Positions 5,162-62,307 of a stretch of 64,000 nucleotides of DNA are shown here, piece by piece. This DNA comes from a virus, in the UHGV virus genome UHGV-0371537. One strand, written 5' to 3'. The notes under the pieces were generated by a model. That model was not told the origin of the DNA. It worked only from the letters and a program-made list of their open reading frames with translations, and ran no database searches. The translations under genes were made by a program, and so were the position numbers. How positions within the stretch are numbered: the first letter of the stretch is position 1; each line of letters opens with the position of its first letter.

Positions 5162-5190
5162 TAATTAAAACAATGGCTTACGTCCTAACA

Positions 5191-5217
5191 AACCCCGCTT
5201 CGGCGGGGTTTTTGTTT
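5191..5217 (+). terminator. rho-independent terminator after major capsid gene
   Basis: AACCCCGC-TTCG-GCGGGGTT then TTTTTGTTTG. Confidence 0.75.
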
Positions 5218-5268
5218 GTTCATAATACCAAACAGGTTATACTAGATACCATACGAAGGAGAACAATT

Positions 5269-6741: not shown

Positions 6742-6804
6742 AAGATCATTTCAATAACGGGGTGAGAGGTATTATTGCCCCGTCTACTATCCGAGGGCTG
6801 TGAC

Positions 6805-7732: not shown

Positions 7733-7758
7733 ATTTTAAATTTATTCAATAAACGGGG

Positions 7759-7786
7759 TTTACTTCTTCAATAAACCCCGTATACT
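7759..7786 (+). promoter_or_regulatory. early-type sigma70-like promoter (TTTACT-N16-TATACT)
   Basis: -35 TTTACT 7759-7764, -10 TATACT 7781-7786; embedded in a 10-bp inverted repeat (7753-7781); ahead of gene 7836. Confidence 0.5.
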
Positions 7787-7835
7787 TCATTCCATAAGCA
7801 GCACAACACTGACTCTGAAATGAAGGAACTACACC

Positions 7836-8132
7836 ATGAACAATATGCCAACCACCAAAACTGCTCTGGAAATCGATTCTCGCTTTATCGTTGAAGCATG
7901 GGCAAATAGCCAAAATGCGTATGTGTACTCCCTTTATATCGGCGACACCTATATTTCTTGTCTCGGTATCGACGGTTCTGTGAACGAGCACGGCGTGAAC
8001 GAGCGCTATACCAAGAAGCAGGCTATCGCGGATGCTACCAAATTCGCAACCGACATTCTGGATCGCATCAAAGCAGGCAAGCCGTACAAACGCGGTGAAA
8101 AGGGCTATGCCACCCAATTGCTCGGCGCTTGA
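7836..8132 (+). CDS. hypothetical protein (first gene behind an early-type promoter)
   Basis: 98 aa; preceded by TTTACT-N16-TATACT promoter and GAAGGAACTACACC-ATG initiation context. Confidence 0.5.
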   Translation: MNNMPTTKTALEIDSRFIVEAWANSQNAYVYSLYIGDTYISCLGIDGSVNEHGVNERYTKKQAIADATKFATDILDRIKAGKPYKRGEKGYATQLLGA

Positions 8133-15314: not shown

Positions 15315-15318
15315 GTGT

Positions 15319-15340
15319 GGGCGGGGGTTTCCCGCCCATT
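15319..15340 (+). terminator. GC-rich hairpin after gp45
   Basis: GGCGGG-GGTTT-CCCGCC then CATTTG (weak T-run). Confidence 0.4.
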
Positions 15341-15368
15341 TGAAATGATTCTTCTACAAGAGGCTGAA

Positions 15369-16025
15369 ATGAGGAATCAACCGTTTGTATATCATTTGTT
15401 AGGAAAGGATGGTTCTTTCTATTTTGGTTCTAGAACGAAATTGGGTGCGCATCCTTTACAATTGTTCACTTCGTATTTCACTTCTTCACAAACGGTCAAG
15501 GAAATCATATCTAAGAAAGGTTCTGATTTCTTTGATGTGATATTTGTAGAATTGTTCGACTCTCCAGAAGATGCATATTGGAGAGAGCAGCAGTTGATTA
15601 GTGAGAACATTGATCACCCAAAATGTTTAAACAAATCATTTCAACCACTGGGTTGTGGTATCGCCAACGGTAGGTCAGCGGGACCCAAACATCACCGAGT
15701 TGGTGTCTCGAGTTGGTTGAAGGGTAAGTCTGGGAATCTTCATCCCATGCACGGAAGAACTGGTAAAAGCCACCCCGCCGCAGGAATAAAACCCTGGGAC
15801 ACCGGGGCTGCGCTGCTACACAACACCAGACCGATGTGGTTAAAGGCTGGGGTAGTGTATGATCACTGGGTTTCTACTGGTGATGGGTGCCATAGAATTG
15901 CCCGTTTGTTCTCTATCAAAGAGAACACCGCAACGAGTATGTTAAACAAATTCAAAGAGGGCTGGAACCCGTATGATGACGACGCTTGGGTTCTGTTCTG
16001 TAAACTATATCATGGAAATACATAA
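15369..16025 (+). CDS. GIY-YIG family homing endonuclease with NUMOD3-like repeats (seg-like)
   Basis: FVYHLLGKDGSFYFGSR (GIY-YIG-like), GKSGNLHPMHGRTGKSHPAAG (NUMOD3-like); inserted between gp45 and gp44; AAGAGG RBS. Confidence 0.65.
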   Translation: MRNQPFVYHLLGKDGSFYFGSRTKLGAHPLQLFTSYFTSSQTVKEIISKKGSDFFDVIFVELFDSPEDAYWREQQLISENIDHPKCLNKSFQPLGCGIANGRSAGPKHHRVGVSSWLKGKSGNLHPMHGRTGKSHPAAGIKPWDTGAALLHNTRPMWLKAGVVYDHWVSTGDGCHRIARLFSIKENTATSMLNKFKEGWNPYDDDAWVLFCKLYHGNT

Positions 16026-18893: not shown

Positions 18894-20093
18894 ATGAAAG
18901 ATAAAGCCCTGGACGTCCCGTACTGCGGTGTCCGCGAAGAAAAGATAAAGTCGGCCAAACCGGTTCTCAGTCCGACCCATACCCGCCTGTCTTATGACTG
19001 GATGAGCGAGCGCTATAAGATCCACGTTCGAAAGGACGTCCAGCGTCTTCCTGCTCCTTGGACGAATAATCCTATACTACGGCAGGTCAAGTTCTGTAAC
19101 GTCCGGAGAGAGCACGACAGGCAGTCTCTTAACCTGATCAACAACATCGTCAACAACGATGCTCTGGGTATGGCAGACAAGATGTTTAACTGCGTGCTGT
19201 TCCGCATGTTCAACCTCTGGGATCCGATCCAGGCTATCGGCGGCGCGATGACGATCAAAGAATTCGCCAAGATTAATCTTGACGCAACCCGTGAACGACT
19301 TCAGAAGTTCGAGGCTGACGGTGGTAAGGTATTCACCAATGCCTTCAACACAGGCGGCCTGAAGCAATGCCTGGCTTTCCCTGAGATGGTTGTCAACCAC
19401 AAGGAGCAGCTCTTCGGTGGGATGATGGTGAAAGTGTATCGCGTTGGCCAGGGTATTGTGGACGAGATGGACTACAAGGTCGCCAAGAAGCTGGTCGAAG
19501 AGAATCCTGGTGAATATACCATCGAGGGATGGGAACCGTACATGCCAATGCGTGTCATCCGTTCCCTGAAGGCATTCGTCAACAAGTATCCAAATTACTT
19601 CCATGACCTGCTGCGCCTTGGTACTCCTCTGGAAGTATACCAGCGCATGTACGACGACATCGAAGGGCTTGGTCCATTCCTGGCTTATCAGATCTGGGTG
19701 GACTTCACGTACATTCCTGAGTATCCGTTTAGTGAGAACCACTTCACGGTTGCTGGACCAGGCTGTCGTGCAGGCATCGACCTGATGTTCCTGAACAAAG
19801 ACGGTATGACCCACGAAGAATGCATCTTCTGGTTACGGGACAACCAGGACGCAGTGTATTCCCAATATGGATATGTTCGTGAGCAATTCTGGTCTGCGGA
19901 AGAGCCTTGGGATCAGTGTATGAATGTTCAACAATTAGAAAACCACTTTTGTGAATTGTCGAAATATACCCGTTGTGTAGAGGCTTTACAGCAAGGTAAA
20001 AAACCGCGCGGGAAGGTTGGATACGATGGGGAAGGACAACCTAAAGCGGCGACATCTGGTTCTAAAAACCTACTAAATTTATTTAAAAAGTAA
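18894..20093 (+). CDS. hypothetical protein (conserved-looking, function unknown)
   Basis: 399 aa, AAGAGGA RBS, preceded by terminator hairpin; no motif I can assign. Confidence 0.5.
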   Translation: MKDKALDVPYCGVREEKIKSAKPVLSPTHTRLSYDWMSERYKIHVRKDVQRLPAPWTNNPILRQVKFCNVRREHDRQSLNLINNIVNNDALGMADKMFNCVLFRMFNLWDPIQAIGGAMTIKEFAKINLDATRERLQKFEADGGKVFTNAFNTGGLKQCLAFPEMVVNHKEQLFGGMMVKVYRVGQGIVDEMDYKVAKKLVEENPGEYTIEGWEPYMPMRVIRSLKAFVNKYPNYFHDLLRLGTPLEVYQRMYDDIEGLGPFLAYQIWVDFTYIPEYPFSENHFTVAGPGCRAGIDLMFLNKDGMTHEECIFWLRDNQDAVYSQYGYVREQFWSAEEPWDQCMNVQQLENHFCELSKYTRCVEALQQGKKPRGKVGYDGEGQPKAATSGSKNLLNLFKK

Positions 20094-20123
20094 CTTACTT
20101 TGTGAGTTAAGAAAGTATATTAT

Positions 20124-20152
20124 AACAGGAACTTTCATTTGGAGTTCCTGTT
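20124..20152 (+). promoter_or_regulatory. RBS-sequestering hairpin ahead of the HNH homing endonuclease
   Basis: Perfect 10-bp inverted repeat AACAGGAACT / AGTTCCTGTT (loop 9 nt) encloses the GGAG Shine-Dalgarno and ends at ATG 20153. Confidence 0.5.
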
Positions 20153-21082
20153 ATGTTTTACGAATTATTGATTTCTAAAGGCGGTAAACCGCATTTTATC
20201 AAGAAGTATTTGAGGATGGTTCAATCTTTCAAATATTCTGATAGTGACTACACTGAATTACACCACATCCTTCCCAAGAGCATGTTCCCTGAATATTCTA
20301 AAGATAAGATAAATTTGGTTCGATTAACAGGCAGACAACATTATCTTGTCCATGTATGCTTGGCCTTGGCTTTCCCAAACACGAGAATGGTGTATGCTGT
20401 TGTAGCTATGAGAAAGGGAGGAAGAAGAAATAAATCAGGTATTCGGTTTAATTCTCATTTGTATGAAAGTTTCAGAATTAAATTCAGCGAACAACTATCT
20501 TTACAATGGAAAGGGGTTTCTCGGTTTGTGGGTAAAGACAACCCAATGTATGGGAGAAGAGGAAAGAATAATCCCCAATATGGGTATAAGAGAACTCCAG
20601 AGCAAGTCAAGAAAATTACCAAAGGATTGATGAAAATCCATGAAAGGATGGCTTCTGATCCGGAATATAAAAGAGAAGTTTTAGAGCAGCGTCGTACCAA
20701 TACGGATTTAAAGCAATTTTCTGAGCGTTCCCGCCAAGCAAAACTCGGTGAACTCAATCCTAATTATGGGAAGGACTTAACCAACTCTTTCACACCGGAA
20801 CAACGCGCCAAACAGAAAGAAAACGCTCAGAAAGGCATGTTGGCTAAGATGCCTTGGGAGAAGGGTAAATGGAACCCCGACAATGACGTATATTGGGAGA
20901 AAGCTGATCAATTCCTTGAAGCCCTGAATACGATGAAACGTTCAGAAGCCCTCTTGTTCGTGTATGGAACAAAAGATCTGAAGGCGTTTAATGCCACCAG
21001 TGGGATAATCGAACGTTTCAATAAAGGCTGGGAACCATTAAAATGCGTAAAATGGTTAAAAAGATATAAGGGTGAAAAATGA
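20153..21082 (+). CDS. HNH family homing endonuclease with NUMOD repeats (mob-like)
   Basis: ELHHILPKS...NLVRLTGRQHY (HNH), GKDNPMYGRRGKNNPQYG and NPNYGK NUMOD-like repeats; RBS inside a 10-bp hairpin. Confidence 0.75.
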   Translation: MFYELLISKGGKPHFIKKYLRMVQSFKYSDSDYTELHHILPKSMFPEYSKDKINLVRLTGRQHYLVHVCLALAFPNTRMVYAVVAMRKGGRRNKSGIRFNSHLYESFRIKFSEQLSLQWKGVSRFVGKDNPMYGRRGKNNPQYGYKRTPEQVKKITKGLMKIHERMASDPEYKREVLEQRRTNTDLKQFSERSRQAKLGELNPNYGKDLTNSFTPEQRAKQKENAQKGMLAKMPWEKGKWNPDNDVYWEKADQFLEALNTMKRSEALLFVYGTKDLKAFNATSGIIERFNKGWEPLKCVKWLKRYKGEK

Positions 21083-21303
21083 GCTGGAAATTGTTCAAAC
21101 TGTGTAAAGCGACTGATGAGTTTCTTCTGAAAGCCCGTATGGAAGGACGTCTCGTGTACACTCCTTACCCAGGCACTATTCGGTTTTGTAGTACGTTGAG
21201 GAAACAGAAATCAGTTTCTGGGCCAAGACGTTTGTTGATGCAGGGGATGCTGGCATACAACTCCGGTGATACTCGGCCTTGTGACGGTGGTAAGATCGTC
21301 TGA
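21079..21303 (+). CDS. hypothetical small protein, 4-nt overlap with the HNH gene
   Basis: 74-aa ORF starting in ATGA overlap with the homing endonuclease stop; may travel with the endonuclease. Confidence 0.35.
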   Translation: MSWKLFKLCKATDEFLLKARMEGRLVYTPYPGTIRFCSTLRKQKSVSGPRRLLMQGMLAYNSGDTRPCDGGKIV

Positions 21304-21422
21304 ATAAAGATTCCCTTTACTTCATTCTTCAATAACTTTTTTCAACGTATTATTGACCTCACTTAAACGAAGCGCCCTGGCAAACGGGGCGCACATTTGA
21401 ACTGAAACAGGAAGACTACATC

Positions 21423-23856: not shown

Positions 23857-23878
23857 CCCTGTTGGCTCCGGCCTGAGC

Positions 23879-23907
23879 AACCCCGCCTTGTGCGGGGTTT
23901 CTTTTAT
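23879..23907 (+). terminator. rho-independent terminator after gene 23485
   Basis: AACCCCGC-CTTGT-GCGGGGTT then TCTTTTAT. Confidence 0.7.
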
Positions 23908-23921
23908 CTGAGGAAACCGTT

Positions 23922-24716
23922 ATGACAACCATCAATCGTAATGAACCCAAAGGTGTTGAGCTGAAGGGTAAATCTGTTCGCGAAGGTCTGAAGCTGTCTC
24001 CAGACCTCCTGAAGTCCCACATTGCTGAAGTCATCTATGAAGACCGTGAAGTCGGCGGTCATCGTGTCATCACCTGCCACTTCAAGATGGATAATGGATT
24101 TATCGTCTGGGGCAAGAATAGCTCTACTTCCATCGACCCTGCCAACTTTGATGAAGAGTTGGGTAAGAAGCTGGCCTATGACAAGACCTTCTCTCAGTTG
24201 TGGGAACTGGAAGCCTACCGCGCCGTTGTGGAGAAGCAGATGTTGGAGGTGGCTACCGCCGATGCGAAGATAGACATCTTCCAGTACATCTCCGAAAGGG
24301 GGAAGATAAATCAGATGGCTGGTATGGAATTCTTGCAAGGCCACGGTCAGTCTTTCGTGTTCCGACATCCACGAGACCCAAGCCGGGGTTTCTGTGCTGA
24401 ATTTATTCAGACTGACAACGAACGCCACAACGAACAATTCAATGGTAAATCCCGAGAGAAGGTTGAAACCTATCTGCGTTCGTTCATGCACCCGGATGAA
24501 TTGTATTCTGAACTCGTTGTCCGTCTGGCAAAGACATGCATGGCGGCTTACAAGGGTGGGATCTACTTCAATGCCACCACTTGGGATAAGATGAGCGCCG
24601 AAGAACAGAAAGACTGCTGTGAAGGCATCAGGCGGCTCTTGCTGGCTCCGGCGGATTATATCCCAACTGATCAGAAGGACGCGCTGTTCAAGGCCATCGT
24701 CGATTCCTACAAATAA
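23922..24716 (+). CDS. hypothetical protein
   Basis: 264 aa, GAGGAAA RBS; antisense 274-aa ORF rejected; no motif assigned. Confidence 0.55.
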   Translation: MTTINRNEPKGVELKGKSVREGLKLSPDLLKSHIAEVIYEDREVGGHRVITCHFKMDNGFIVWGKNSSTSIDPANFDEELGKKLAYDKTFSQLWELEAYRAVVEKQMLEVATADAKIDIFQYISERGKINQMAGMEFLQGHGQSFVFRHPRDPSRGFCAEFIQTDNERHNEQFNGKSREKVETYLRSFMHPDELYSELVVRLAKTCMAAYKGGIYFNATTWDKMSAEEQKDCCEGIRRLLLAPADYIPTDQKDALFKAIVDSYK

Positions 24717-24746
24717 CTGAATCAGCAAACTCCTTCAATAACAATG

Positions 24747-24778
24747 ACGCCCAGTATATTTGCTGGGCGTTTCAATTT
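24747..24778 (+). terminator. terminator-like hairpin after gene 23922
   Basis: ACGCCCAG-TATATTTG-CTGGGCGT then TTCAATTTG. Confidence 0.5.
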
Positions 24779-24789
24779 GTGCATCACAG

Positions 24790-24795
24790 TATAAT
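24790..24795 (+). promoter_or_regulatory. -10-like TATAAT box ahead of the Prs-like/NAMPT-like gene pair
   Basis: TATAAT at 24790-24795 after hairpin 24747-24770; no convincing -35. Confidence 0.3.
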
Positions 24796-30175: not shown

Positions 30176-30181
30176 CAGAAG

Positions 30182-30207
30182 TCCCCAACAAACGTTGGGG
30201 ATTTTTA
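30182..30207 (+). terminator. rho-independent terminator after ACP-like gene
   Basis: TCCCCAAC-AAAC-GTTGGGGA then TTTTT. Confidence 0.7.
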
Positions 30208-30217
30208 CTTTTAGGGG

Positions 30218-30246
30218 TTTACTTCCTCTAAGGAATGTCCTATTAT
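30218..30246 (+). promoter_or_regulatory. early-type sigma70-like promoter (TTTACT-N17-TATTAT)
   Basis: -35 TTTACT 30218-30223, -10 TATTAT 30241-30246; directly after terminator 30182-30207. Confidence 0.5.
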
Positions 30247-30297
30247 TCAATAACTGGCGAACGATGGGTTCATCAGGTTGAAAGGTAAGATTATATC

Positions 30298-30537
30298 ATG
30301 AAGAACAAAATGGTCGAAACTTCAGTAGAGATTGATCGCAATTGGGGCTTGCTGCGCGCAAAGGGGTTCCGTCGTGTGTATGCGACCAAAGAAGTCTACG
30401 CACAGCGCCGTGACGTTATTATCAGTAAGAAGGGTAAAGAGTGGGTTGCTGAAGAAGTCGATGTTGAGACTGGCGTCGTCGGCAAGATAAAGGCCAAATC
30501 TGCAATTCTCTTCGCTCTTCTGAAGCATATCAGTTAA
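30298..30537 (+). CDS. hypothetical small basic protein
   Basis: 79 aa behind TTTACT-N17-TATTAT promoter and GATTATATC-ATG context. Confidence 0.45.
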   Translation: MKNKMVETSVEIDRNWGLLRAKGFRRVYATKEVYAQRRDVIISKKGKEWVAEEVDVETGVVGKIKAKSAILFALLKHIS

Positions 30538-31830: not shown

Positions 31831-31914
31831 TCTGAATACGATAGTTTATTGAAACCCTTTACTCAACATGGTGAGCCGCCTATCATTTCATCCAATGAAA
31901 TAAGGAGAATCACC

Positions 31915-32601
31915 ATGAAACGTTTAATCCTCGGGGTCGTGCTGGCTGGTCTGGCATTACCCGCCGCCGCCAAGCTGAACTCCACAGGTGACAAACTGTG
32001 GTCTGATCTTTCCTACTGTGCTGGGTTCTCCCAGGCAGTCGCCATCGACAAGTCTGGTTCCATAGAGAACTTTGCTGAACTCTGGAACACGGGCAACGTC
32101 TCCACTGCTGTGGTCAATGCTGGGATTGAGTTCAACCGTTACAAACAGGGAGCCTATAACCTCAAGGGCTACCTCAATGACGATGAATTTAATCGAGGCG
32201 GAATGGAGGCTGGCGATTTGATCATGACTGGCCGAATGGGCACCCAAGGCCGAATGACAGTCAGACAGTGCCGTTCGCTTCCTTCTCCGGCATTACAGAA
32301 GGGTGTGCAGATAGGCCGCCGTCACCTGAACCTCATCAACGATGGCAACCAGTGCATCAAAGTATTCGAATACAGCGCTACACAGACCTCTGATCGCGTC
32401 CTGAAGAAGGAATGGCGTACTCGCGCTCTTGGTCTCAGAGCCTGGCTGGTTGAGAACGATCATTATTTTGAGGATCGTGTTCAGAACGGTCTGAAAGACC
32501 TGGCCACGAATCTGAGCGTGAACCTTGATGATCCTCGCATGTCGCGCGAACTTCAGCAGACTCGTGTTGACTGCGACAATATGATGAAGGAGAACGAGTG
32601 A
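31915..32601 (+). CDS. secreted protein with Sec signal peptide
   Basis: MKRLILGVVLAGLALPAAA signal peptide; AAGGAG RBS. Confidence 0.55.
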   Translation: MKRLILGVVLAGLALPAAAKLNSTGDKLWSDLSYCAGFSQAVAIDKSGSIENFAELWNTGNVSTAVVNAGIEFNRYKQGAYNLKGYLNDDEFNRGGMEAGDLIMTGRMGTQGRMTVRQCRSLPSPALQKGVQIGRRHLNLINDGNQCIKVFEYSATQTSDRVLKKEWRTRALGLRAWLVENDHYFEDRVQNGLKDLATNLSVNLDDPRMSRELQQTRVDCDNMMKENE

Positions 32602-45025: not shown

Positions 45026-45040
45026 AAATAATTCAATAAA

Positions 45041-45065
45041 AGGGGCTTTCGCCCCTTTACTTCTT
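45041..45065 (+). terminator. rho-independent terminator after gene 44387, abutting an early promoter
   Basis: AGGGGC-TTTC-GCCCCT then TTACTTCTT. Confidence 0.6.
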
Positions 45066-45084
45066 CAATATCCTTCCCTATACT
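45056..45084 (+). promoter_or_regulatory. early-type sigma70-like promoter (TTTACT-N17-TATACT)
   Basis: -35 TTTACT 45056-45061, -10 TATACT 45079-45084; downstream TTCATTCCATAAGCAG block also found at 7787-7802. Confidence 0.55.
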
Positions 45085-45132
45085 TCATTCCATAAGCAGT
45101 ACGACACCAACTTGAAACGAAGGAACTATATT

Positions 45133-45492
45133 ATGGCTATCACCACAAAAACTGAATTGAACGCGATCCTGAAAGAAGCTGGCTTCGGTAGTATCAAACG
45201 CCAGGGCAAGGTTTTACGCGATGGCGGTAAAATCGTAAAGGGCATCATGTTGGGAAGTACTGGCCCGTTGAGCATCAGCTCCCCTCAGTATGACAATCTT
45301 CGTAAACTGGCGCGTGAACTTCTCCAAGAAGACCTCCATATCACGACGCAAGAAACCAATTATGTGGTTTTGGAATGCAACAAATTCATCGTCAGCCTTT
45401 ACATCTGCAGCACCCGCTCATATCCGGTGTCTGAAGGTTATGACCCAATGTATCTGACCCATTATGCTCAGGTTACTGTCAAAGCAAAATAA
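45133..45492 (+). CDS. hypothetical protein behind an early-type promoter
   Basis: 119 aa; N-terminus MAITTKTELNAILKEAGFG resembles gene at 51446; promoter TTTACT-N17-TATACT upstream. Confidence 0.5.
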   Translation: MAITTKTELNAILKEAGFGSIKRQGKVLRDGGKIVKGIMLGSTGPLSISSPQYDNLRKLARELLQEDLHITTQETNYVVLECNKFIVSLYICSTRSYPVSEGYDPMYLTHYAQVTVKAK

Positions 45493-45504
45493 TCAAATTC
45501 AACG

Positions 45505-45530
45505 GGGAGCTTCGGCTCCTCTTTTGTTTT
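45505..45530 (+). terminator. rho-independent terminator after gene 45133
   Basis: GGAGC-TTCG-GCTCC then TCTTTTGTTTTCG. Confidence 0.65.
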
Positions 45531-45576: not shown

Positions 45577-47565
45577 ATGGCCACCCCATCTTTCTTAAAT
45601 TTCCTTGAAGAGTCTAAACAATTAGACGAAGCGTTCAACTCCGCTCCGTATGAGCTGACCATGGGTAAGAAGAACGCAGGCGATGTGTTCTTCACCTTCA
45701 TCGACGAAGATGAAAAGGAATACCGTATTCAGTTCTATACCCCACAGGGGCTGGGCAAGAACGTTCGTCAGGTCTTCATCGGCCAGAAGCGCGGCTCCGT
45801 CTACCCTGATGCCATCGCTCGCTTCAAAAACCCAATGCGCGTCATCGCCTCCATGATCGAAGCGACCAAGCAGTTCCTGGCGACCCCTCTGGGCAAGACC
45901 ATCGATGGTTATGCTGTCAACTTCTCTAAGAAAGCGCTGGAACGCGGGATGACCCTGATTCCTAAGATCATCCGCCAGTCCGGCCTGAAGCAGAAACTGA
46001 ACGTCATGGACCTGACTTACGCGCCTGTCCCTGACCGTGGTTATGTGTGGTTGGTCCGCAAGGGCAAAGATCCGGCTCAGGTATTCGACGGTCCGAAGAT
46101 GCAGGGCATCACCTGGGATGATCCAGACAAGGTCGGTGACGTTCCGGTTCAGAACAATACCCCAGATGTGGGGACTTCATCTTCTGTTGATGATTCCAAC
46201 GGATGGAAATTAACTTCAAACGGGGATCAGCCTATGTTGATCTGGGTTGGCAAAGAGAGAGGCCGCATGAACACGGCAAATATCGCTCCCCACTACAATG
46301 AGCCAGGCGTGTATGTTGGCGCATACATGAATGAGAAATCTGTGCGTGGGCAAAGTGCTGATTTCATTGCTCGTCAGTTGAAATTACCGCAAGTCCCTAT
46401 CAGTATCCTGAATGATTTCACCACGGCGTCCACAAAATTTTGGAAAGGTTCTCAGCAGAAGTCTGCGCCAGCTGACTCCAACACCACTATTGGTGCTCGG
46501 GGTGTGGGAACTGGGTCTGGTTCTTCTGAAATCGAAATCAACCGCGACTGGTACAACAGCTCAGACACTGGTCTGGTGTTGAAGAGCGGGCGCGACCCGA
46601 TTCGCGGAAACTACACCCGCTTGATGAGCGGTTCGAGAGAAGTAGCCACATTCTATGGCTATGATTTTGACAAATACCCAGACGGAACTGAAGTATCTTG
46701 GAATATGAAGCGCGGCTTCACCAACCAAGACTTGGTCGGTGCGTCCATGACCAAACAGAAGAAAGGCATGTACGATCAGTACACTTTCAAGAAAGGTGCT
46801 CAGTTAATTCTGGTGGTGGACGTTGATACCAGCAACAATACCAACACCCTCAGTTCTAACGACCTAAAAATCCCGCGCAACGCCGAAGTATTCGGTGAAA
46901 CTGGTAGTGGTTTCTCCGTTCGGTGGGCTGTCAATTTCCCCGAAACGGGAAAATATGCCGGTACTTCTATGATAACCAACGTAACCTATTATCATGACAA
47001 AGGCAAAGTTGCATTCACCCCAATTGTCTCTCAGAAAGGGCGTACCCTGAACAATCCGAAGACATATGAACTTCCTTTGAACAAAGATTTGGTCCAGAGT
47101 GTGATTGATGAGATTTCATCAAAAATGGTATATCTTTCCAGAAACCTCCAACAGTTGAAAAGTCAGACATACAACCCAAACCAGGTTTTCTTGAATGATA
47201 TAACCATCACGGATAAAGGTGAAGTGATTTGGAACGATTACAACTTGTCTGACGGCAAAGTTACACAAATTATGCTGTCCATGATAAGCGCAGAAAATAA
47301 ACGCTTGGAGAAAGTGACAAACAGGCCGGATATCACATTACCAAAGAAACAAGCCGAAGTAGTAGAATTTATAAACCGGATGATTGATATTGATCTCGGA
47401 CCTTATTTGAGAGAACCCAAAAAACGTGATGTGGTATTATTCGACTCTTCTGAATTGTCGATAAACCAACTCAACAACATAGAACGCCTGGGAAGAGAAA
47501 CAGGAAAATGGTCTCTTCAGTCAAACGGCGGTATGGGTCATGCACTATTTCTGAATGTTTGGTGA
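45577..47565 (+). CDS. large hypothetical protein with possible capsid-targeting N-terminus (Alt-like position)
   Basis: 662 aa; N-terminus MATPSFLNFLEES resembles T4 internal-protein targeting leaders; no ADP-ribosyltransferase motif confirmed. Confidence 0.5.
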   Translation: MATPSFLNFLEESKQLDEAFNSAPYELTMGKKNAGDVFFTFIDEDEKEYRIQFYTPQGLGKNVRQVFIGQKRGSVYPDAIARFKNPMRVIASMIEATKQFLATPLGKTIDGYAVNFSKKALERGMTLIPKIIRQSGLKQKLNVMDLTYAPVPDRGYVWLVRKGKDPAQVFDGPKMQGITWDDPDKVGDVPVQNNTPDVGTSSSVDDSNGWKLTSNGDQPMLIWVGKERGRMNTANIAPHYNEPGVYVGAYMNEKSVRGQSADFIARQLKLPQVPISILNDFTTASTKFWKGSQQKSAPADSNTTIGARGVGTGSGSSEIEINRDWYNSSDTGLVLKSGRDPIRGNYTRLMSGSREVATFYGYDFDKYPDGTEVSWNMKRGFTNQDLVGASMTKQKKGMYDQYTFKKGAQLILVVDVDTSNNTNTLSSNDLKIPRNAEVFGETGSGFSVRWAVNFPETGKYAGTSMITNVTYYHDKGKVAFTPIVSQKGRTLNNPKTYELPLNKDLVQSVIDEISSKMVYLSRNLQQLKSQTYNPNQVFLNDITITDKGEVIWNDYNLSDGKVTQIMLSMISAENKRLEKVTNRPDITLPKKQAEVVEFINRMIDIDLGPYLREPKKRDVVLFDSSELSINQLNNIERLGRETGKWSLQSNGGMGHALFLNVW

Positions 47566-47637: not shown

Positions 47638-48210
47638 ATGAAACCTTTTATCGAATATTTTAAAGAGCAAGCTGCACAGCCTCAGACCCATGCTGGTGTC
47701 CAGGGTAAGACCGTATCCATCACCAAGCAAGCTGACGGCACCCAGTGGTGTTCCGGCGCTACCGTGACCCAGATCACTCCTGACAATCAGGCGGATGTCT
47801 ACAACCTGGAGTTAACCAACGGCAACACCATCAAGGTGAAGCTGACCCCAGACCAGACTCACGGTATCTCCCAAGGTCAGGAAGTTGTTGCTGTCCACGA
47901 TGGCTTCGAATTCTTCTTCTTCGGCAAGTCCGCCGACAAAGGCCAGGTGACTGAAGCCTATGCCCAGGAACTGGCGAACATGGACAAGATGATCGGTAAA
48001 GCACTGGGTGTTGGCAAGTCCCGCAAGAGTGGTCGCACTGAGTTCGAATACTCTGGCATCCCTGGCATCGGCAAGGCGATCACCGTGAACTTCGGCGGCG
48101 AAGATGACCCATATGTGATCGTCACCTGCAACGGCAAAGAGCAGGACATCAGCAAGGGTAAAAACCTGGCTGCTGACATTGCCAAGTTCCTCGGTGTTAA
48201 GCCTGTGTAG
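47638..48210 (+). CDS. internal-protein-like head protein candidate
   Basis: 190 aa; N-terminus MKPFIEYFKEQAA resembles T4 IP leader MKTYQEFIAEA; GAGGAGAG RBS. Confidence 0.5.
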   Translation: MKPFIEYFKEQAAQPQTHAGVQGKTVSITKQADGTQWCSGATVTQITPDNQADVYNLELTNGNTIKVKLTPDQTHGISQGQEVVAVHDGFEFFFFGKSADKGQVTEAYAQELANMDKMIGKALGVGKSRKSGRTEFEYSGIPGIGKAITVNFGGEDDPYVIVTCNGKEQDISKGKNLAADIAKFLGVKPV

Positions 48211-48240
48211 AAGGGTGAACTTTGCAACCGGGTGAGTCGT

Positions 48241-48276
48241 AAAATAAACCCCGCTTTTCGCGGGGTTTTGTTATTT
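48241..48276. terminator. bidirectional rho-independent terminator between convergent genes
   Basis: AAAATAAACCCCGC-TTTTC-GCGGGGTTTTGTTATTT; A-run on one side, T-run on the other. Confidence 0.75.
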
Positions 48277-48876
48277 CACATACATACTGACTTGTACTTT
48301 CTTACCTTTTTCGTTTTTGACGTCCATCAGCTTGGATGCACCATTCAGTTTCATGACGGTTCCGCGTTCTTTGCCGCCATTCGGTAACTCGTATTCAATA
48401 TCTTCCCCAGGAGATGGCATACCCGCATGAGGTCCCATAACCATGGCGATCTTATAACGAGCCAAGCCGGGGCGACCGCCTTTATACGCATACCAACCAC
48501 CTTCAGTCATTTCTTTCCATTGCTTGTTACCGTCAATGGAGATAAAGGAATTGCCCATACCTGATTTGACATCCAACAAGTCAATATATTTGCCTGATTT
48601 GTTGTACTTGACAGCGGTGTCAGTATCAACCTTGTCAATCATCTGGGCGCTGGCAAACTGTCCATCTTTCAATCCAGATGCTGAGATGATGTCTTTGGCA
48701 TTGGCCAGGATTATCTTGCGACCGTCAGGGGTTTCAAAGGTGGCTTTGTCGCCACTAACACTAACTCGCAAGAAAGTGCCGATATTGTCTTCGGTGGACT
48801 TGCCGATCTTGTCTGACTTGATATGAACAGACATCGGTGGCGCGGCTTCGGTCAAAAAGTCTTGAAAAGTTTTCAT
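48271..48876 (-). CDS. internal-protein-like head protein candidate (minus strand)
   Basis: 201 aa; N-terminus MKTFQDFLTEAA closely matches T4 IP leader MKTYQEFIAEA; GGAG RBS; convergent with 47638 gene. Confidence 0.55.
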   Translation of the reverse strand: MKTFQDFLTEAAPPMSVHIKSDKIGKSTEDNIGTFLRVSVSGDKATFETPDGRKIILANAKDIISASGLKDGQFASAQMIDKVDTDTAVKYNKSGKYIDLLDVKSGMGNSFISIDGNKQWKEMTEGGWYAYKGGRPGLARYKIAMVMGPHAGMPSPGEDIEYELPNGGKERGTVMKLNGASKLMDVKNEKGKKVQVSMYVK

Positions 48877-51249: not shown

Positions 51250-51343
51250 AACTTTTTACTTCACATCACCCTCCCTCCAGGCCTCGTCGAATGAGGCCTT
51301 TTAAAATACTTCAAAAATATTTTAAAAATTTATTGAAAAAGAC

Positions 51344-51372
51344 TTTACTCTTCAATAATGATGCACTATTAT
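51344..51372 (+). promoter_or_regulatory. early-type sigma70-like promoter (TTTACT-N17-TATTAT)
   Basis: -35 TTTACT 51344-51349, -10 TATTAT 51367-51372; in an AT-rich spacer ahead of gene 51446. Confidence 0.5.
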
Positions 51373-51445
51373 AGTTCACATAGGGCGGTAACACACCGCC
51401 GAATGAAAAGTGAAACGAACCAACTACATTATGAGGAATTACATC

Positions 51446-51934
51446 ATGGCTACTACCAAAACTCTGATCACCAACGGCACCATCTCTTTCGAACTGAACA
51501 CCGAAGTTGCTAAAGTTGAAATGTTCCGCATCGCTCAGGCAGCTGGCTTCACTGGTGGCAAAACTTCCTTCATGAACCTGCTGAACGGCAAAGTGGAAGC
51601 GACTAACGGCTTCACCCTGGTAGAGCAGACTGTGGTTGACAAAGCCGTGGTTGCTAAGGCTGCTGACAAAGTTGGCATGCTGAAAGACCTGGGTCACGAC
51701 ATCCACGTTGTCGAAGCGAATACCGAAACTTACGGCACCATCGTAGTCGGTAAAGGTCGCATCCAGCTGAACCCACTGAACAACGGTTCCTTCTCTGTGA
51801 TGGTCTTCCCTAAGAAGGGCTATGACAACACAGACATCGTGAAAGCTGCTGGCGGCGAAGCGAAAGCTCAGTATGTCAAAATGGGTAAACTGAGCGCCAA
51901 AGACGTTCAGACCCTGGTGAGCAAACTGGCTTAA
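51446..51934 (+). CDS. hypothetical protein behind an early-type promoter
   Basis: 162 aa from ATG 51446 (GAGGA RBS); N-terminus MATTKT...AAGFTG resembles gene at 45133. Confidence 0.5.
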   Translation: MATTKTLITNGTISFELNTEVAKVEMFRIAQAAGFTGGKTSFMNLLNGKVEATNGFTLVEQTVVDKAVVAKAADKVGMLKDLGHDIHVVEANTETYGTIVVGKGRIQLNPLNNGSFSVMVFPKKGYDNTDIVKAAGGEAKAQYVKMGKLSAKDVQTLVSKLA

Positions 51935-54336: not shown

Positions 54337-54353
54337 ATGTTCCGAGACTAATC

Positions 54354-55013
54354 ATGAATTATCAAAATATCTATGACTCTCTGATACAAAGAGCCAAGAC
54401 CCGTTCATTGGTTGGTTATTCTGAAACCCACCATATTATCCCTAGATGTATGGGAGGGAAAGATGACAAACATAATCTGGTGGAGTTGACACCAGAAGAA
54501 CATTATTTAGCACATCAATTGTTAGTCAAAATATATCCCAAAAATTTCAAATTAGCATTTGCAGCTAATGCTATGTGCGTAAACAATGAATTCTCCGGTA
54601 GATCTTGTAACAAATTATTCGGTTGGTTGCGGAGAAAACTTTCTCATTCCAATAAACAGATGTACAAAGACAACCCTAATTTGAGGAAAATTCGTTCCGA
54701 TCAAATGAAACAGACACATGTAAAGTATTCTCATTTGCGGGAAATACAGTCTAAACGTTTGAAGGAAAACAATATATGCGTGATAAAACAACCTTGGGAA
54801 AGTAACCATGCCACCAAAGAGTCTTTGGATATATGGAAACGCGCCGACGAATATTATGATTGGTGGTTGTGCAACCAAAAAGGTTGCACGTTCATGGCGA
54901 AAGCGTTTGGGTTCAAAAACAAGACGACTCCGCATTTCACAATGATTAATAAATTTAAATCTGGGTGGAATCCCAAAGCCGACCCAGAGTGGTTAGAGTT
55001 TGTAAGTCAATAA
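54354..55013 (+). CDS. HNH family homing endonuclease (mob-like)
   Basis: YSETHHIIPRCMGGKDDKHNLVELTPEEHYLAH (HNH); inserted between phoH and nrdA; C-terminal NKFKSGWNP motif shared with two other endonucleases. Confidence 0.75.
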   Translation: MNYQNIYDSLIQRAKTRSLVGYSETHHIIPRCMGGKDDKHNLVELTPEEHYLAHQLLVKIYPKNFKLAFAANAMCVNNEFSGRSCNKLFGWLRRKLSHSNKQMYKDNPNLRKIRSDQMKQTHVKYSHLREIQSKRLKENNICVIKQPWESNHATKESLDIWKRADEYYDWWLCNQKGCTFMAKAFGFKNKTTPHFTMINKFKSGWNPKADPEWLEFVSQ

Positions 55014-55072
55014 GCCCCGAAGAGTTTATTATTGGGGTGGAGTTCATTCACCAATAAATCCAGGAAATATAA

Positions 55073-57361
55073 ATGAGCGAAATTAACGTCATTAAGCGGG
55101 ACGGATCTTCTGTCCCCTTTGATATTGAGAAACTACACGCAGTCGTAGACCGCGCATGTGACGGCCTGCCTGGTGTATCAATGTCAGAGGTGATCGCTGC
55201 ATCGAAGATTCAGTTCACCGACAACATGAGAACAGATCGCATTCAGGATATCCTCATCCAGGCTGCGGCTTCGCTGATCTCTGTAGACAAACCCAATTAC
55301 CAGTATGTGGCTGCTCGCCTGAAGTCATATGATCTGCGCAAGGCTGTCTATGGCCAGTACAAGCCGCCTCACCTGCTGGATATCTTCGTCAAGAACATCA
55401 AACAGCGTGTGTATGATCGTGAGTTCCTTGATCTCTACACGACCGAAGAGTTCAACGAGCTGAACGATGTTATCAACCACAAACGTGACAAGAACTTCAC
55501 CTGGGCGGCCATGGGTCAGCTGACAGAGAAGTATCTGCTGCGTGACCGTTCCAAGAAGGACAGCAAGATCTTCTATGAAACCCCACAGGTCATGTACATG
55601 GGCATCGCCATGGCGTTGTTCTCCAACTGGGACAAAGACAGCCGCCTGGATATGGTGAAGAAGTTCTATGAATATGCCAGCACAGGCAAGTTCAGTCTTC
55701 CAACCCCGATTATGGCAGGCGTTCGTACTCCTACCCGTCAGTTCAGTTCCTGCGTGTTGATCAAAACTGGTGACACCCTGGACTCTATCAACGCAACAGC
55801 CAAGACCATCGTTGACTATGTGTCCAAACGTGCGGGTATCGGCTTCGACATCGGGGCGATACGTGGGATTGGTAGTCCTATTCGCGGCGGAGAGATGGTT
55901 CACACAGGCCTGATCCCATTCATCAAGTATCTCACTGGGGCGCTCAAGTCTTGCTCCCAGGGCGGCATTCGTGGTGGTGCAGCAACAGCTTATATCCCTC
56001 TGTGGCATTACCAGTTCGATGACGTCGTTGTACTGAAGAATAACCGTGGCACTGAAGAAAACCGCGAACGCCGTATCGACTACGGTATTCAGATCAACCG
56101 CGTGATGTTTGAGCGCCTGGTTGCCAAGCAGCCTCTGTATCTGTTCGACCCGAAAGACAACCGCGAAATGTACGAAGCATACTTCTCCGACGTCGACAAG
56201 TTCCGTACTCTGTATGAGAACATGATCAAGGCCGCCGATGCTGGTCTGGTACGTTCTAAGAAGCTGCAGGCTGAAGAAGTGTTCCAGATGCTGTTAGACC
56301 AGCGTTCAGACACAGGCCGCATCTACATCGCATTTGTCGATCACATGAATGAATACAGCCCATTCAACCTCGACACGATCTACAGCTCCAACCTGTGTCT
56401 TGAAATCGCCCTGCCGACCCGTGAGTTTGAGCAGTACAACGATGAAAACGGGCGCGTGGCTCTGTGCACCCTGGCTTCCTTTAACCTGACGGCGTTCGAA
56501 GACCCGACTGAGATGGAAGACGTGGCGTTTGTGTTGGTGTCTGCGCTGGACATGCTGTTGGAATATCAGGACTATCCGGCAATCCAGGCTCGTAAGGCTG
56601 TTGAGGATTATCGCCCTCTGGGTGTTGGTATCGTGAACGTGGCTCACTTCTTGGCCAAGAACTTCACAGGCTATGGTTCTCCGGCTGGTCTTGAGATGTT
56701 GGATGCGTGGATGGCACACCTGCACTACTATCTGGTCAAGGCATCCAACCGTCTGGCGATGAAGTTCGGTGCATGCAAACGTGGAACCATCCACAATAAT
56801 GGGCAGGTCACTGCCGATCTTCAGCCGCTTCCACTTGATATCCTGCCGAATGGTAAGAAACCGGAAGGCATGGCATACGGCCTGGATTGGGAAGAACTGA
56901 AGGATGATCTGAAGACCTATGGTATCCGCAATGCCACCCTGCTGGCAGTAGCCCCTACCGAAAGCTCCTCACAAGTCCTCAACGCAACGAACGGCATTGA
57001 GCCACCGAAGGGCTTGGTAAGCATTAAGGGCAGCAAGGACGGCACGTACAAGCAGGTCGTTCCGGATGTAGAGACCCTTGGACCGCTGTATGACCTGAAG
57101 TGGGACCTGGAATGCATCGAGTACCTGAAGACCGCTGCTGTCATCCAGCGCTGGGTTGACCAGTCCATCAGTACCAACACATGGTATGACCCAGAGAAGT
57201 ACCCTGACGGCAAGATCCCTCGTGCTAAGATGATGCAGGATATCCTGTCGTTCTATATGTGGGGTGGTAAGACTCTGTATTACAACACGAACAAGGACGC
57301 CAAGGAAGACGAAGAGCTGAAACAGGCTGATGCCGTGGAATGTGAAAGTTGTATCGTGTAG
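55073..57361 (+). CDS. nrdA: ribonucleotide reductase large subunit (class Ia NrdA)
   Basis: 762 aa; N-terminal ATP-cone (VIKRDGSSVPFDIEKL), catalytic region SSNLCLEI..., C-terminal CESCIV tail. Confidence 0.9.
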   Translation: MSEINVIKRDGSSVPFDIEKLHAVVDRACDGLPGVSMSEVIAASKIQFTDNMRTDRIQDILIQAAASLISVDKPNYQYVAARLKSYDLRKAVYGQYKPPHLLDIFVKNIKQRVYDREFLDLYTTEEFNELNDVINHKRDKNFTWAAMGQLTEKYLLRDRSKKDSKIFYETPQVMYMGIAMALFSNWDKDSRLDMVKKFYEYASTGKFSLPTPIMAGVRTPTRQFSSCVLIKTGDTLDSINATAKTIVDYVSKRAGIGFDIGAIRGIGSPIRGGEMVHTGLIPFIKYLTGALKSCSQGGIRGGAATAYIPLWHYQFDDVVVLKNNRGTEENRERRIDYGIQINRVMFERLVAKQPLYLFDPKDNREMYEAYFSDVDKFRTLYENMIKAADAGLVRSKKLQAEEVFQMLLDQRSDTGRIYIAFVDHMNEYSPFNLDTIYSSNLCLEIALPTREFEQYNDENGRVALCTLASFNLTAFEDPTEMEDVAFVLVSALDMLLEYQDYPAIQARKAVEDYRPLGVGIVNVAHFLAKNFTGYGSPAGLEMLDAWMAHLHYYLVKASNRLAMKFGACKRGTIHNNGQVTADLQPLPLDILPNGKKPEGMAYGLDWEELKDDLKTYGIRNATLLAVAPTESSSQVLNATNGIEPPKGLVSIKGSKDGTYKQVVPDVETLGPLYDLKWDLECIEYLKTAAVIQRWVDQSISTNTWYDPEKYPDGKIPRAKMMQDILSFYMWGGKTLYYNTNKDAKEDEELKQADAVECESCIV

Positions 57362-58770: not shown

Positions 58771-58777
58771 TCTGTCA

Positions 58778-58805
58778 AAGCCCCTCAATGAGGGGCTTTA
58801 CTTTT
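58778..58805 (+). terminator. rho-independent terminator after glutaredoxin gene, abutting an early promoter
   Basis: AAGCCCCTC-AAT-GAGGGGCTT then TACTTTT. Confidence 0.6.
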
Positions 58806-58825
58806 GAAACACCCTCCCCTATACT
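58797..58825 (+). promoter_or_regulatory. early-type sigma70-like promoter (TTTACT-N17-TATACT)
   Basis: -35 TTTACT 58797-58802, -10 TATACT 58820-58825; directly after terminator hairpin 58778-58798. Confidence 0.55.
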
Positions 58826-58875
58826 TCCCAATAATTCATTGGCATTCGCCACAAATTGAAAGCGGGAACTATATC

Positions 58876-59337
58876 ATGACAAACAAAGTGCTCACCAACC
58901 CACTGCACAACTTCGGTTACATTCAGCTTCCTCTGGTGATTGATACCCTATACGCTGATGACAAAGAGGAGATCTGTTGGTCTCCAACCGCTCTGATTGA
59001 ACGCGAAATCTTCAAGTCTGTTGTTGATGTTATGTTCCGTATCGGTCGCAATGCACCTCTGGTCTACCTCGGCAAAGCAACTGAACTGAAGACAAGCCAC
59101 AACGAACGCTTCCTGCGCATTGATACTACCGGGTGCTCCCAGCAAGACTTCAACACACTGCGCAATTATGTTCTGGTCAACCGCCCGGTATCCCAGCATC
59201 GTCCTTACCTGACGTCAATGCACATAGACAGTTTCATCACTGACGTACACCTGCAGGCTGAAACCCTCCATGAAGAGGAAACAGGCCGAGCTATCGACAC
59301 TGTCTTAAATATGGTTGTGATCACCCTCGCGGAGTAG
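58876..59337 (+). CDS. hypothetical protein behind an early-type promoter
   Basis: 153 aa from ATG 58876 (GGAACTATATC-ATG); promoter TTTACT-N17-TATACT upstream. Confidence 0.45.
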   Translation: MTNKVLTNPLHNFGYIQLPLVIDTLYADDKEEICWSPTALIEREIFKSVVDVMFRIGRNAPLVYLGKATELKTSHNERFLRIDTTGCSQQDFNTLRNYVLVNRPVSQHRPYLTSMHIDSFITDVHLQAETLHEEETGRAIDTVLNMVVITLAE

Positions 59338-62130: not shown

Positions 62131-62160
62131 AGCCAATAAAAATCCCGCCGAAGCGGGATT
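62131..62160 (-). terminator. rho-independent terminator for minus-strand gene 62308-63114
   Basis: AATCCCGC-CGAA-GCGGGATT hairpin; on the minus strand it is followed by TTTTATTGG. Confidence 0.65.
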
Positions 62161-62307
62161 ATGGTTTCTTAGACAACCTGACCTTGAGGGCTTCAGTTAA
62201 CAAGTCAAGGTGCCATGGCATCGATTCATTGATTTCAAATATGTTATAGCCGTGTAACTTCAATTCATCACACATCACGAAATAGGATAATAAATCAGTT
62301 TCAAACA

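Follow-up and report, generated by a model that had tools for sequence, protein, structure and literature searches.

We analysed a 64,000-nucleotide stretch of the virus genome UHGV-0371537 (hereafter the window, always meaning this whole stretch) for a recurring intergenic motif, in which the hexamer TTTACT is followed after 16 or 17 nt by a TATACT-like hexamer. It occurs at six sites, named here by the first position of TTTACT: 7759, 30218, 31858, 45056, 51344 and 58797. Judged from sequence comparison, these are almost certainly sigma-70-type promoters of the kind known from the early genes of phage T4. The explanation which we favour and consider probable in its entirety is that they are promoters of T4-early flavour for host RNA polymerase with sigma-70, several of which are joined with hairpins in cassettes resembling the PeSL elements of T4-like phages. 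The motif is enriched, uniformly oriented and fixed in its spacing, its hexamers leave a clear conservation footprint, the associated hairpins are stable and display limited covariation, genes are replaced at the ATG, and the cassette copies are mosaics of one another.

The window derives from an Ackermannviridae phage of the ViI-like, Agtrevirus/Limestonevirus type. A 3-kb probe around the finding is 94-96% identical to Ackermannviridae phages (Salmonella phages SW16-7, SKML-39 and others), and the whole window is syntenic with SKML-39, with portal and capsid genes followed by replication, nucleotide-metabolism and many small genes, nearly all of them on the plus strand up to ~59.7 kb. Related loci from ~20-38 genomes were collected around four anchor genes and their orthologous intergenic regions aligned, with 8-23 relatives contributing to each per-site conservation figure.

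Occurrence and orientation of the promoter motif

The pattern TTTACT-N16/17-TATWMT was found exactly at the five positions named in the earlier note (7759, 30218, 45056, 51344 and 58797), all on the plus strand, against an expectation of 0.02 from 100 dinucleotide shuffles, none of which reached five. Each of these five sites is intergenic and lies upstream of a co-oriented open reading frame (ORF) of 79-162 aa preceded by a Shine-Dalgarno (SD)-like purine run, in agreement with the small genes and ribosome-binding sites described before. The count of five discrete units was too low, since the -10 pattern on which it was based left out a sixth member: loosening the -10 alone adds the intergenic site 31858 (TTTACT-N17-TATCAT) and no other on the plus strand. 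On the minus strand, a looser pattern (TT[GT]AC) gave five matches, all with other -35 hexamers, and no TTTACT site. All six sites sit between a stop codon and a co-oriented ORF (79-228 aa) with an SD-like purine run, and at four of them 48-51 nt separate the -10 from the ATG. In terms of overall coverage, the class fills ~6 of ~40 sizeable intergenic gaps in the window, an approximate count only, as it comes from crude ORF-based gene calling with spurious minus-strand calls. A further TTTACTT at 21316 was considered as a seventh member and rejected, because it is not conserved in relatives and, lying 26 nt from the -10, is not a -35.

In the complete SKML-39 genome, 6 strict matches were counted where 0.13 are expected. 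Each lies between genes and points towards the gene that follows, as do the 9 matches of a relaxed version, all of them on the plus strand.

A coincidence of AT-rich intergenic composition could be argued from the fact that each site reaches just 9/12 against the canonical consensus, and from a generic sigma-70 consensus scan of 60 kb, in which promoter-like sites were no commoner than in shuffles. Since this generic scan is unenriched, the signal resides in the specific motif and not in general promoter-likeness. The excess of five matches over 0.02 expected, the bias in strand and position, the conservation in ~20 genomes and the fixed spacing refute coincidence as an explanation, and we assign it virtually no probability.

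Conservation of the hexamers

In the mean of the six sites, the relatives agree with the window at 98% of -35 and 92% of -10 positions, compared with 72% of positions in the spacer's 3' half and 78% in upstream coding DNA. Across all family loci, 60 distinct TTTACT/-10 contexts were found, with a spacing of 16 nt in 11 and 17 nt in 49 of them; spacings of 12-15 or 18-22 nt did not occur, and no context was antisense. TTTACT, a 4/6 match to TTGACA, thus stands 16 or 17 bp from the -10 in 60/60 contexts. As -10, the six sites carry TATACT, TATTAT or TATCAT, to which the relatives add TATAAT, TACTAT and TATAGT, with A2 and T6 kept in every case.

The same picture emerges at the single sites. At 30218, both hexamers are 100% conserved in 18 relatives around four unrelated spacers, each of 17 nt. 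Site 31858 is conserved in relatives, the distant ones having TACTAT as -10, and its 17-nt spacer is fixed. The 20 relatives compared at 45056 all keep the -35 unchanged and have either TATACT or TATAAT as -10 after a spacer of 16 or 17 nt, and the hairpin shows ~8 loop variants and one compensatory stem pair; the perfect TATAAT is found in the more distant relatives. At 51344, neither hexamer changes in any of 11-15 relatives. The alternative register at this site from the ΦSboM-AG3 paper (TTGAAA...AATAAT) was rejected: the final T (T-7) of AATAAT is lost in 5/14 distinct relative sequences, in contrast to TATTAT, which never changed.

With hexamers that are near-invariant and a spacer that is rewritten at constant length, the alignments therefore display the footprint expected of a functional -35/-10 promoter, and not of chance or of a terminator tail alone. 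To this extent the proposal of promoters recognised by host sigma70 is supported, as the hexamer pairs behave as coupled -35 and -10 elements. Recognition by sigma-70 itself is predicted from this geometry, and the early timing would follow from the resemblance to T4 early promoters.

Within the spacers, the sequence (T)CTTCAATA(A/T) fills the 5' half at 7765-7774, 45062-45071 and 51350-51358, where it is 97-100% conserved, and it is also present in the 30218 spacer of distant relatives. It additionally occurs at 7745, 45032 and 30246, that is, upstream of two hairpins and directly after one -10.

Relation to middle promoters

An alternative assignment would be that of phage-factor-dependent middle promoters, at which RNA polymerase would use the -10 and a MotA/AsiA-like activator would read a box near -30 (CTTCA or TTCAATAA) in place of sigma-70 reading TTTACT. 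In the record of phage LIMEstone1, the sites orthologous to 45056 and 51344 carry the label 'putative middle promoter', with a CTT core, and TCTTCA is indeed similar to the 3' part of TGCTT(t/c)A, the MotA box, ending 10, 11 and 12 nt from the -10 at 7759, 45056 and 51344, where the T4 rule is 12 +/- 1. The 5' half of the spacer (TCTTCAATA) is moreover 97-100% conserved at these three sites. However, the CTT core is lacking at 30218, 31858 and 58797, and at 45056 it becomes ATT in more distant relatives in which TTTACT is invariant, so that what remains of a match to the MotA box is a partial CTTCA core at 3/6 sites, separated from the -10 by 10-12 nt. In each of the 60 contexts, 16 or 17 nt separate TTTACT from the -10, which is the geometry of sigma-70 region 4. 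The 'middle' labels of LIMEstone1 were derived by pattern matching to T4, and the register they imply at the 45056 orthologue (CTT...TACGAC) was rejected, since its -10 lacks the essential final T and its CTT core is not conserved. MotA and AsiA are not mentioned in the LIMEstone1 and AG3 genome papers, and none was found among the 16 window proteins scanned, a whole-genome search not having been made. Taken together, we consider a middle-promoter identity of the TTTACT sites quite unlikely and retain their assignment as sigma-70 promoters of the T4 early kind.

A separate class, TTCAATWW-N11-13-TATWWT, also counts in favour of the middle-promoter assignment. It occurs 4 times in the window against 0.01 expected and 7 times in SKML-39 against 0.03, figures which are optimistic because the pattern was derived post hoc, and all occurrences are co-oriented with the next gene. 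In the window the sites are 6750-6775, 21328-21353, 24734-24760 and 24771-24795; in SKML-39 (NC_019910) they are 26361, 39041, 42824 and 42860 on the plus strand and 150202, 136307 and 128885 on the minus strand. Between the end of the box and the -10 lie 12 +/- 1 nt, as with the MotA box of T4, and the octamer at 21328 is invariant in 17 relatives whose flanks vary. In this geometry, a -10 with a box ~12 bp upstream, the TTCAATWW class resembles the MotA-dependent middle promoters of T4, as do three TTTACT sites roughly through CTTCA. The likeness ends at the box, which is not (a/t)3TGCTT(t/c)A, at the MotA and AsiA genes, which have not been reported, and at the TTTACT sites, which keep a -35 at 16/17 bp.

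Both classes could be connected through the octamer TTCAATAA. In such a combined scenario, TTCAATAA would be the box of a candidate phage transcription factor that sets the temporal programme, and the cassettes would in addition be mobile linkers for the shuffling of ORFans, PeSL-like elements outside the T4-like phages. Positioned 12 +/- 1 bp from the -10 (6750, 21328, 24734/24771 and the 7 SKML-39 sites), the box may activate a middle-type class in a MotA-like manner; inside the TTTACT spacers (7759, 45056 and 51344), the same factor may shut early promoters off. We put this forward as speculation, with a small chance that all of its parts hold together.

Hairpins associated with the promoters

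All five hairpin regions fold stably as RNA, with -13.5 to -17 kcal/mol at four of them and z scores of -3.7 to -5.1. The earlier note had placed each promoter immediately after a GC hairpin, which applies to 45056 (-13.5 kcal/mol, z -4.7) and 58797 (-17.2 kcal/mol) and not to 30218, 51344 and 7759. At 45056 and 58797, TTTACTT directly follows the stem and thus provides both the U tail of the terminator and the -35. An upstream hairpin ends 12-17 nt before the -35 at 30218 and 45 nt before it at 51344, where it is terminator-like (51279-51299, plus strand, AGGCCTCGT-CGA-ATGAGGCCT followed by TTTTAAAA; -13.6 kcal/mol, z -4.3). At 7759, a perfect inverted repeat of 10 bp (7753-7762/7772-7781; -14 kcal/mol, z -5.1) surrounds the -35 and spacer and lacks a U tail. 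Stems remain paired in 100% (45056) and 96% (58797) of cells, with one and two compensatory pairs, and loops vary freely.

The terminator-like hairpin near 30218 (30177-30206, plus strand) follows an acyl-carrier-protein gene and has the core TCCCCAAC-loop-GTTGGGGA at 30182-30201 and then TTTTTACTTTT; its loop varies among relatives. The fold of this region reaches -26.9 kcal/mol for 61 nt, a value that includes a second, non-conserved hairpin. This second hairpin (30209-30233), which would hold the -35 in its loop, was dismissed for its lack of conservation in relatives.

In the distant relatives L051, L052 and L055 the 30218 promoter is kept without a hairpin, and in SKML-39 the same holds for the 58797 promoter (TTTACTTT...TATACT), located downstream of an endonuclease insertion. 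Because of these hairpin-less promoters, hairpin and promoter can be regarded as separable modules, and by sequence comparison the hairpin is a module apart from the promoter and not part of it. The stable hairpins would insulate several promoters from upstream transcription, and their energies, U-rich tails and limited covariation, all in silico, are consistent with actual termination.

One could go further and regard the conserved block as mainly a terminator, RNA 3'-end element or recombination linker without initiation, in which TTTACTT is kept as U tail and the rest homogenised. The direct succession of stem and TTTACTT at 45056 and 58797 would fit such a function, as would the exchange of sequence between cassette copies, the base-perfect conservation of the 7759 cassette in 8 relatives, which goes beyond the needs of a promoter alone, and the LIMEstone1 record, which marks just a terminator at the 58797 orthologue. 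However, conservation of TTTACT and the -10 is no weaker at sites without a stem that they could serve (31858, 51344 and the hairpin-less 30218), and TTTACTTT...TATACT is kept without a hairpin in SKML-39. Substitutions furthermore concentrate in the 3' half of the spacer and spare the hexamers at fixed spacer length, a pattern that homogenisation would not give. We therefore rate a pure terminator or linker function as very improbable.

Cassette copies and gene replacement

The promoters 7759 and 45056 lie in two copies, s1 and s2, of one cassette reaching from stop codon to ATG, with 77-86% identity over ~105 nt. The block TTCATTCCATAAGCAG, which the earlier note had found downstream of both promoters, is real, though located one base earlier than given, at 7786-7801 and 45084-45099, and it is part of this longer repeat (37 nt at 86%; ~105 nt at 77-79%). 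Counted in full-length Ackermannviridae genomes in IMG/VR, the core TTTACTTMTTCAATA-N6-8-TATAMT is present in 3-4 copies in nearly every genome (2 in LIMEstone1), at four loci. Most core matches outside the family were set aside as chance, being located in AT-rich coding sequence without hairpin or leader. Variants of spacer, -10 and leader that are found at s2 in one lineage are found at the s4 copy in another and vice versa, and in two genomes the s1 copy contains patches of s2-type leader, which shows that sequence is exchanged among the copies.

Behind the 45056 cassette lies a variable slot, which in 20 relatives holds one or two genes from five PHROG families and is closed by a terminator on its 3' side. 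In the window it is occupied by a 119-aa ORF (45133-45492, plus strand; PHROG 13016, without assigned function), homologues of which sit behind cassette s4 in other genomes. The one-gene unit is closed by the terminator hairpin GGGGAGC-TTCG-GCTCCTC followed by TTTTGTTTTC (45504-45521, plus strand). This hairpin is conserved in relatives, where it likewise delimits the slot on its 3' side, and in 18/18 of them breakpoints cluster at 45504-45530. The slot behind the 7759 cassette displays four PHROG families. Its 98-aa ORF in the window (7836-8132, plus strand; PHROG 17538 without assigned function, no Pfam hit) is found in 1/9 relatives, with three other PHROG families filling the slot in relatives, and the s1 cassette itself is base-perfect in the 8 relatives mentioned above, amid flanking coding DNA that is 80% identical. 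RegB, annotated nearby in relatives, was considered as a slot gene and is not among them.

Synteny breaks at the ATG in 18/18 relatives at 45056 (45135-45182), 7/9 at 7759 (7839-7842), 10/19 at 58797 and 8/20 at 30218. ATG junctions are thus observed behind 4/6 promoters, along with mosaicism across loci, and three promoter-proximal genes are conserved. The initiation motif ACTAYAYYATG has 8 matches against 0.08 expected (7828, 16004, 21415, 30590, 33962, 45125, 51423 and 58868), all on the plus strand and at gene starts, and 6/8 coincide with breakpoint clusters. This suggests that the conserved segment from SD to ATG is a preferred junction for gene replacement.

At 58797, three relatives (SKML-39/L002, L031 and L039) carry insertions directly after hairpin-TTTACTTT or TTTAATTT (58797-58804), two of which are homing-endonuclease-type genes. 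In SKML-39 (76807-77639), an 818-bp homing-endonuclease gene lies between duplicated TTTACTTT, so that a half cassette, comprising just hairpin and -35, precedes it and a promoter without hairpin follows it.

Directly downstream of the 45056 slot, a 662-aa protein (45577-47565) matches PHROG 3867 in its N-terminal part and, weakly, an internal head protein at its C-terminus. With internal breakpoints at ~46150, 46430 and 46850 in most relatives, it looks like a mosaic, fast-evolving protein.

Comparison with known promoters and cassettes

Early promoters of T4 (PMC2988021) share with the sites described here a non-canonical -35, (G)TTTAC, a good -10 at ~17 bp, AT-rich upstream sequence at some sites, conservation beyond the hexamers and small downstream genes without assigned function. 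The -35 reads GTTTACT at 7759 and 30218 and CTTTACT at the other four sites, with a TTTACW core at all six. The arrangement in T4 is UP/-35/TGn/-10; here, AT-rich upstream sequence is found at 51344 and 7759, but a hairpin occupies the UP-element position at 45056 and 58797, and the -10 is often TATACT.

PeSL elements have been described as cassettes from stop codon to ATG that combine AT-rich DNA with a terminator stem-loop (GGGG...CCCC), a sigma-70-like promoter and an SD sequence (PMC2839356, PMC4122927). In T4/PST, the stem-loop closely precedes a promoter with the consensus TTTACW-N17-TAYWAT, and the 3' end carries SD and ATG (PMC4122927); in RB49, stems are generally GGGG...CCCC and crossovers fall between the -10 and the ATG (PMC2839356). 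The likeness to these elements of T4-like phages (RB49/phi1, T4/PST and KVP40/nt-1; Arbiol 2010, Comeau 2014) is extensive, comprising the composite of AT-rich stretch, G-rich stem-loop, promoter, SD and ATG, a consensus that is essentially the present motif, several dispersed copies per genome with small ORFans behind them, apparent gene replacement with junctions between -10 and ATG, and degraded 'half' elements such as the hairpin and -35 before the SKML-39 endonuclease insertion. The composite is present at 45056, 58797, 30218 and 51344, with the hairpin 0-45 nt upstream; 7759 is a variant whose hairpin encloses the -35, and 31858 has no hairpin. Differences concern the phage family, here Ackermannviridae and not T4-like myoviruses, and the number of copies, with 3-4 paralogous cassettes and 6-9 promoters per genome here as opposed to tens in the hyperplastic regions of T4-like phages. 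Dense tandem arrays flanking single ORFans are absent, and the activities of the elements are putative, read from sequence. PeSLs are also characterised by mini-circles arising through recombination between flanking cassettes; here, a slot has a cassette at its 5' end alone and is closed at its 3' end by a plain terminator. Our literature search found no paper linking PeSLs to Ackermannviridae.

Against this background, the earlier designation as a phage-specific class was overstated. The (G)TTTAC-N17-TAYWAT form is the published early/PeSL promoter consensus of T4/PST (PMC4122927), and the 2012 LIMEstone1 record (GenBank HE600015; PMC3296691) already marks the orthologues of 30218 (GTTTAC/TATTAT) and 7759 (GTTTAC/TATACT) as putative early promoters with the same hexamers. 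In the same record, the orthologues of 45056 and 51344 carry a terminator besides their 'middle' label. Table S2 for ΦSboM-AG3 (PMC3121705) contains two sites of the class, Porf138 (TTttacttcttcaataactcacgTATAAT, a further cassette copy) and Porf100. These annotations, which concern orthologous or paralogous sites, differ from ours in that sites were taken singly, 45056 and 51344 were put in another class and register, Porf100 was given in an off-register, non-conserved sigma-70 reading, 58797 was missed as a promoter, and neither a shared cassette nor conservation or gene exchange was described. A 2024 review of the Ackermannviridae, which gives 174 as the number of complete genomes on NCBI, makes no mention of promoters or transcription.

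Proposed model

We propose a model in which the -35 (G/C)TTTACT and, after a spacer of 16-17 bp, the -10 TATACT/TATAAT/TATTAT/TATCAT would be read by host polymerase with sigma-70. From each promoter, transcription would then run through a short leader (~41-44 nt at four sites), at whose end lies a shared initiation region (...GGAACTAYAYCATG), into a small accessory gene. At most sites, the stable G+C hairpin just upstream would terminate transcription from the preceding gene or insulate against it, and at 45056 and 58797 the use of TTTACTT both as U tail and as -35 would result in a very compact terminator-promoter junction. Three or four promoters per genome, in the window 7759 and 45056, are copies of one cassette of the order TTCAATAA - hairpin - TTTACTTCTTCAATA - -10 - CATAAGCAG leader - SD. 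Since it is repeated and conserved, the cassette is probably also a homology patch for the swapping of small genes, as has been proposed for PeSLs of T4-like phages, with recombination presumably running through the cassette.

Several observations weigh against parts of this model, in addition to the generic scan and the scores of the sites, none of which exceeds 9/12. No TGn is found at any of the six sites, in contrast to T4 early promoters, and a plain sigma-70 model does not account for TCTTCAATA, which is conserved within the 5' half of several spacers. The minus-strand block of SKML-39, which contains classic early-type genes such as rIIA/B and in which topoisomerase and polymerase are also located, has no member of the class, which therefore is not 'the' early promoter class. 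Our literature search found no transcription-start, timing or in vitro data for Ackermannviridae. Stem covariation derives from very few changes, and shuffle controls reach the observed values in 55/500 and 3/500 trials. The relatives are not independent, so that conservation figures and spacing counts overstate the number of independent observations. With regard to gene exchange, the genes behind 30218, 31858 and 51344, three of the five promoter-proximal genes that could be scored, are kept in 95-100% of relatives (19/19 for the 51344 gene), and ~60 other breakpoint clusters lie at ordinary gene boundaries. A link between promoters and gene turnover is not significant overall (Mann-Whitney p = 0.08). 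Indel association is thus not statistically above background here, another difference from PeSLs, and a general hyper-variability of the genes behind these promoters is not supported overall.

The feature is solid and largely expected; the promoter type had been partly annotated already, and existing knowledge is not overturned. Its relevance lies in the wide use of Ackermannviridae in biocontrol, detection and phage engineering. A validated list of promoters and terminators would define small genes that are probably expressed first and would be candidates for host takeover or anti-defence, and it would supply compact, portable terminator-promoter-leader parts for engineering these phages. Natural 'landing slots' could likewise be used, notably the one at 45056, which tolerates five unrelated genes. 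Finally, the PeSL idea of regulatory cassettes as modular gene-exchange linkers would be extended from T4-like phages to a second family.

Architecture of the individual sites

All sites lie on the plus strand. Cassette s1 (7745-7835) begins with the AT-rich TTCAATAA (7745-7752) and comprises the -35 TTTACT at 7759-7764, a 16-nt spacer that again includes TTCAATAA, the -10 TATACT at 7781-7786 and a 49-nt leader ending in GAAGGAACTACACC before the ATG at 7836. Cassette s2 (45030-45132) has the AT-rich TTCAATAA at 45032-45039 and the hairpin AAAGGGGC-TTTC-GCCCCTTT (45039-45046/45051-45058), whose T tail overlaps the -35 TTTACT at 45056-45061. It continues with the 17-nt spacer TCTTCAATATCCTTCCC, the -10 TATACT at 45079-45084 and a 48-nt leader (CATAAGCAG...GAAGGAACTATATT) up to the ATG at 45133. 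A comparable overlap of T tail and -35 (TTTACT, 58797-58802) is found in the cassette at 58777-58875, in which the hairpin AAAGCCCCTC-AAT-GAGGGGCTTT (58777-58786/58790-58799) is followed by a 17-nt spacer, the -10 TATACT at 58820-58825 and a 50-nt leader ending in GGGAACTATATC; the ATG at 58876 opens a 153-aa ORF to 59337.

In the promoter region at 30218-30297, the -35 TTTACT (30218-30223), a 17-nt spacer and the -10 TATTAT (30241-30246) precede a 51-nt leader and, from the ATG at 30298, a 79-aa ORF (30298-30537). The region at 31858-31914, without an adjacent hairpin, contains the -35 TTTACT (31858-31863), a 17-nt spacer, the -10 TATCAT (31881-31886) and a 28-nt leader with AAGGAGAA. Its ATG at 31915 starts a 228-aa signal-peptide protein, after which comes an Rz-like spanin gene. 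At 51300-51445, an AT-rich UP-like stretch (51300-51343) leads to the -35 TTTACT (51344-51349), the spacer CTTCAATAATGATGCAC and the -10 TATTAT (51367-51372), followed by a 73-nt leader and, from the ATG at 51446, a 162-aa ORF to 51934. This leader contains a conserved stem-loop, GGGCGG-loop-CCGCC (51384-51403), whose stem is kept in relatives in spite of a 4-nt loop insertion, and which has no Rfam match. Rfam returned no known RNA family anywhere in the window, and neither Pfam nor PHROGs assigned a function to any of the promoter-proximal or slot genes.

Other variable segments and repeats

Three segments of the window (15371-16024, 20017-21300 and 54337-55082, with ORFs at 15315-16025, 20153-21303 and 54354-55013) are missing from most relatives and lie between conserved replication or nucleotide-metabolism genes. 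They are likely mobile or accessory insertions, perhaps homing-endonuclease-like. A repeat family, D2, consists of terminator hairpins of the form AA(A)CCCCGC-loop-GCGGGGTT(T) with a T run at 5187-5222, 23876-23911, 48243-48278 and 62137-62172. These hairpins have no TTTACT promoter behind them, and several are located at boundaries of variable segments (5212-5217, 23901-23922 and 48203-48221).

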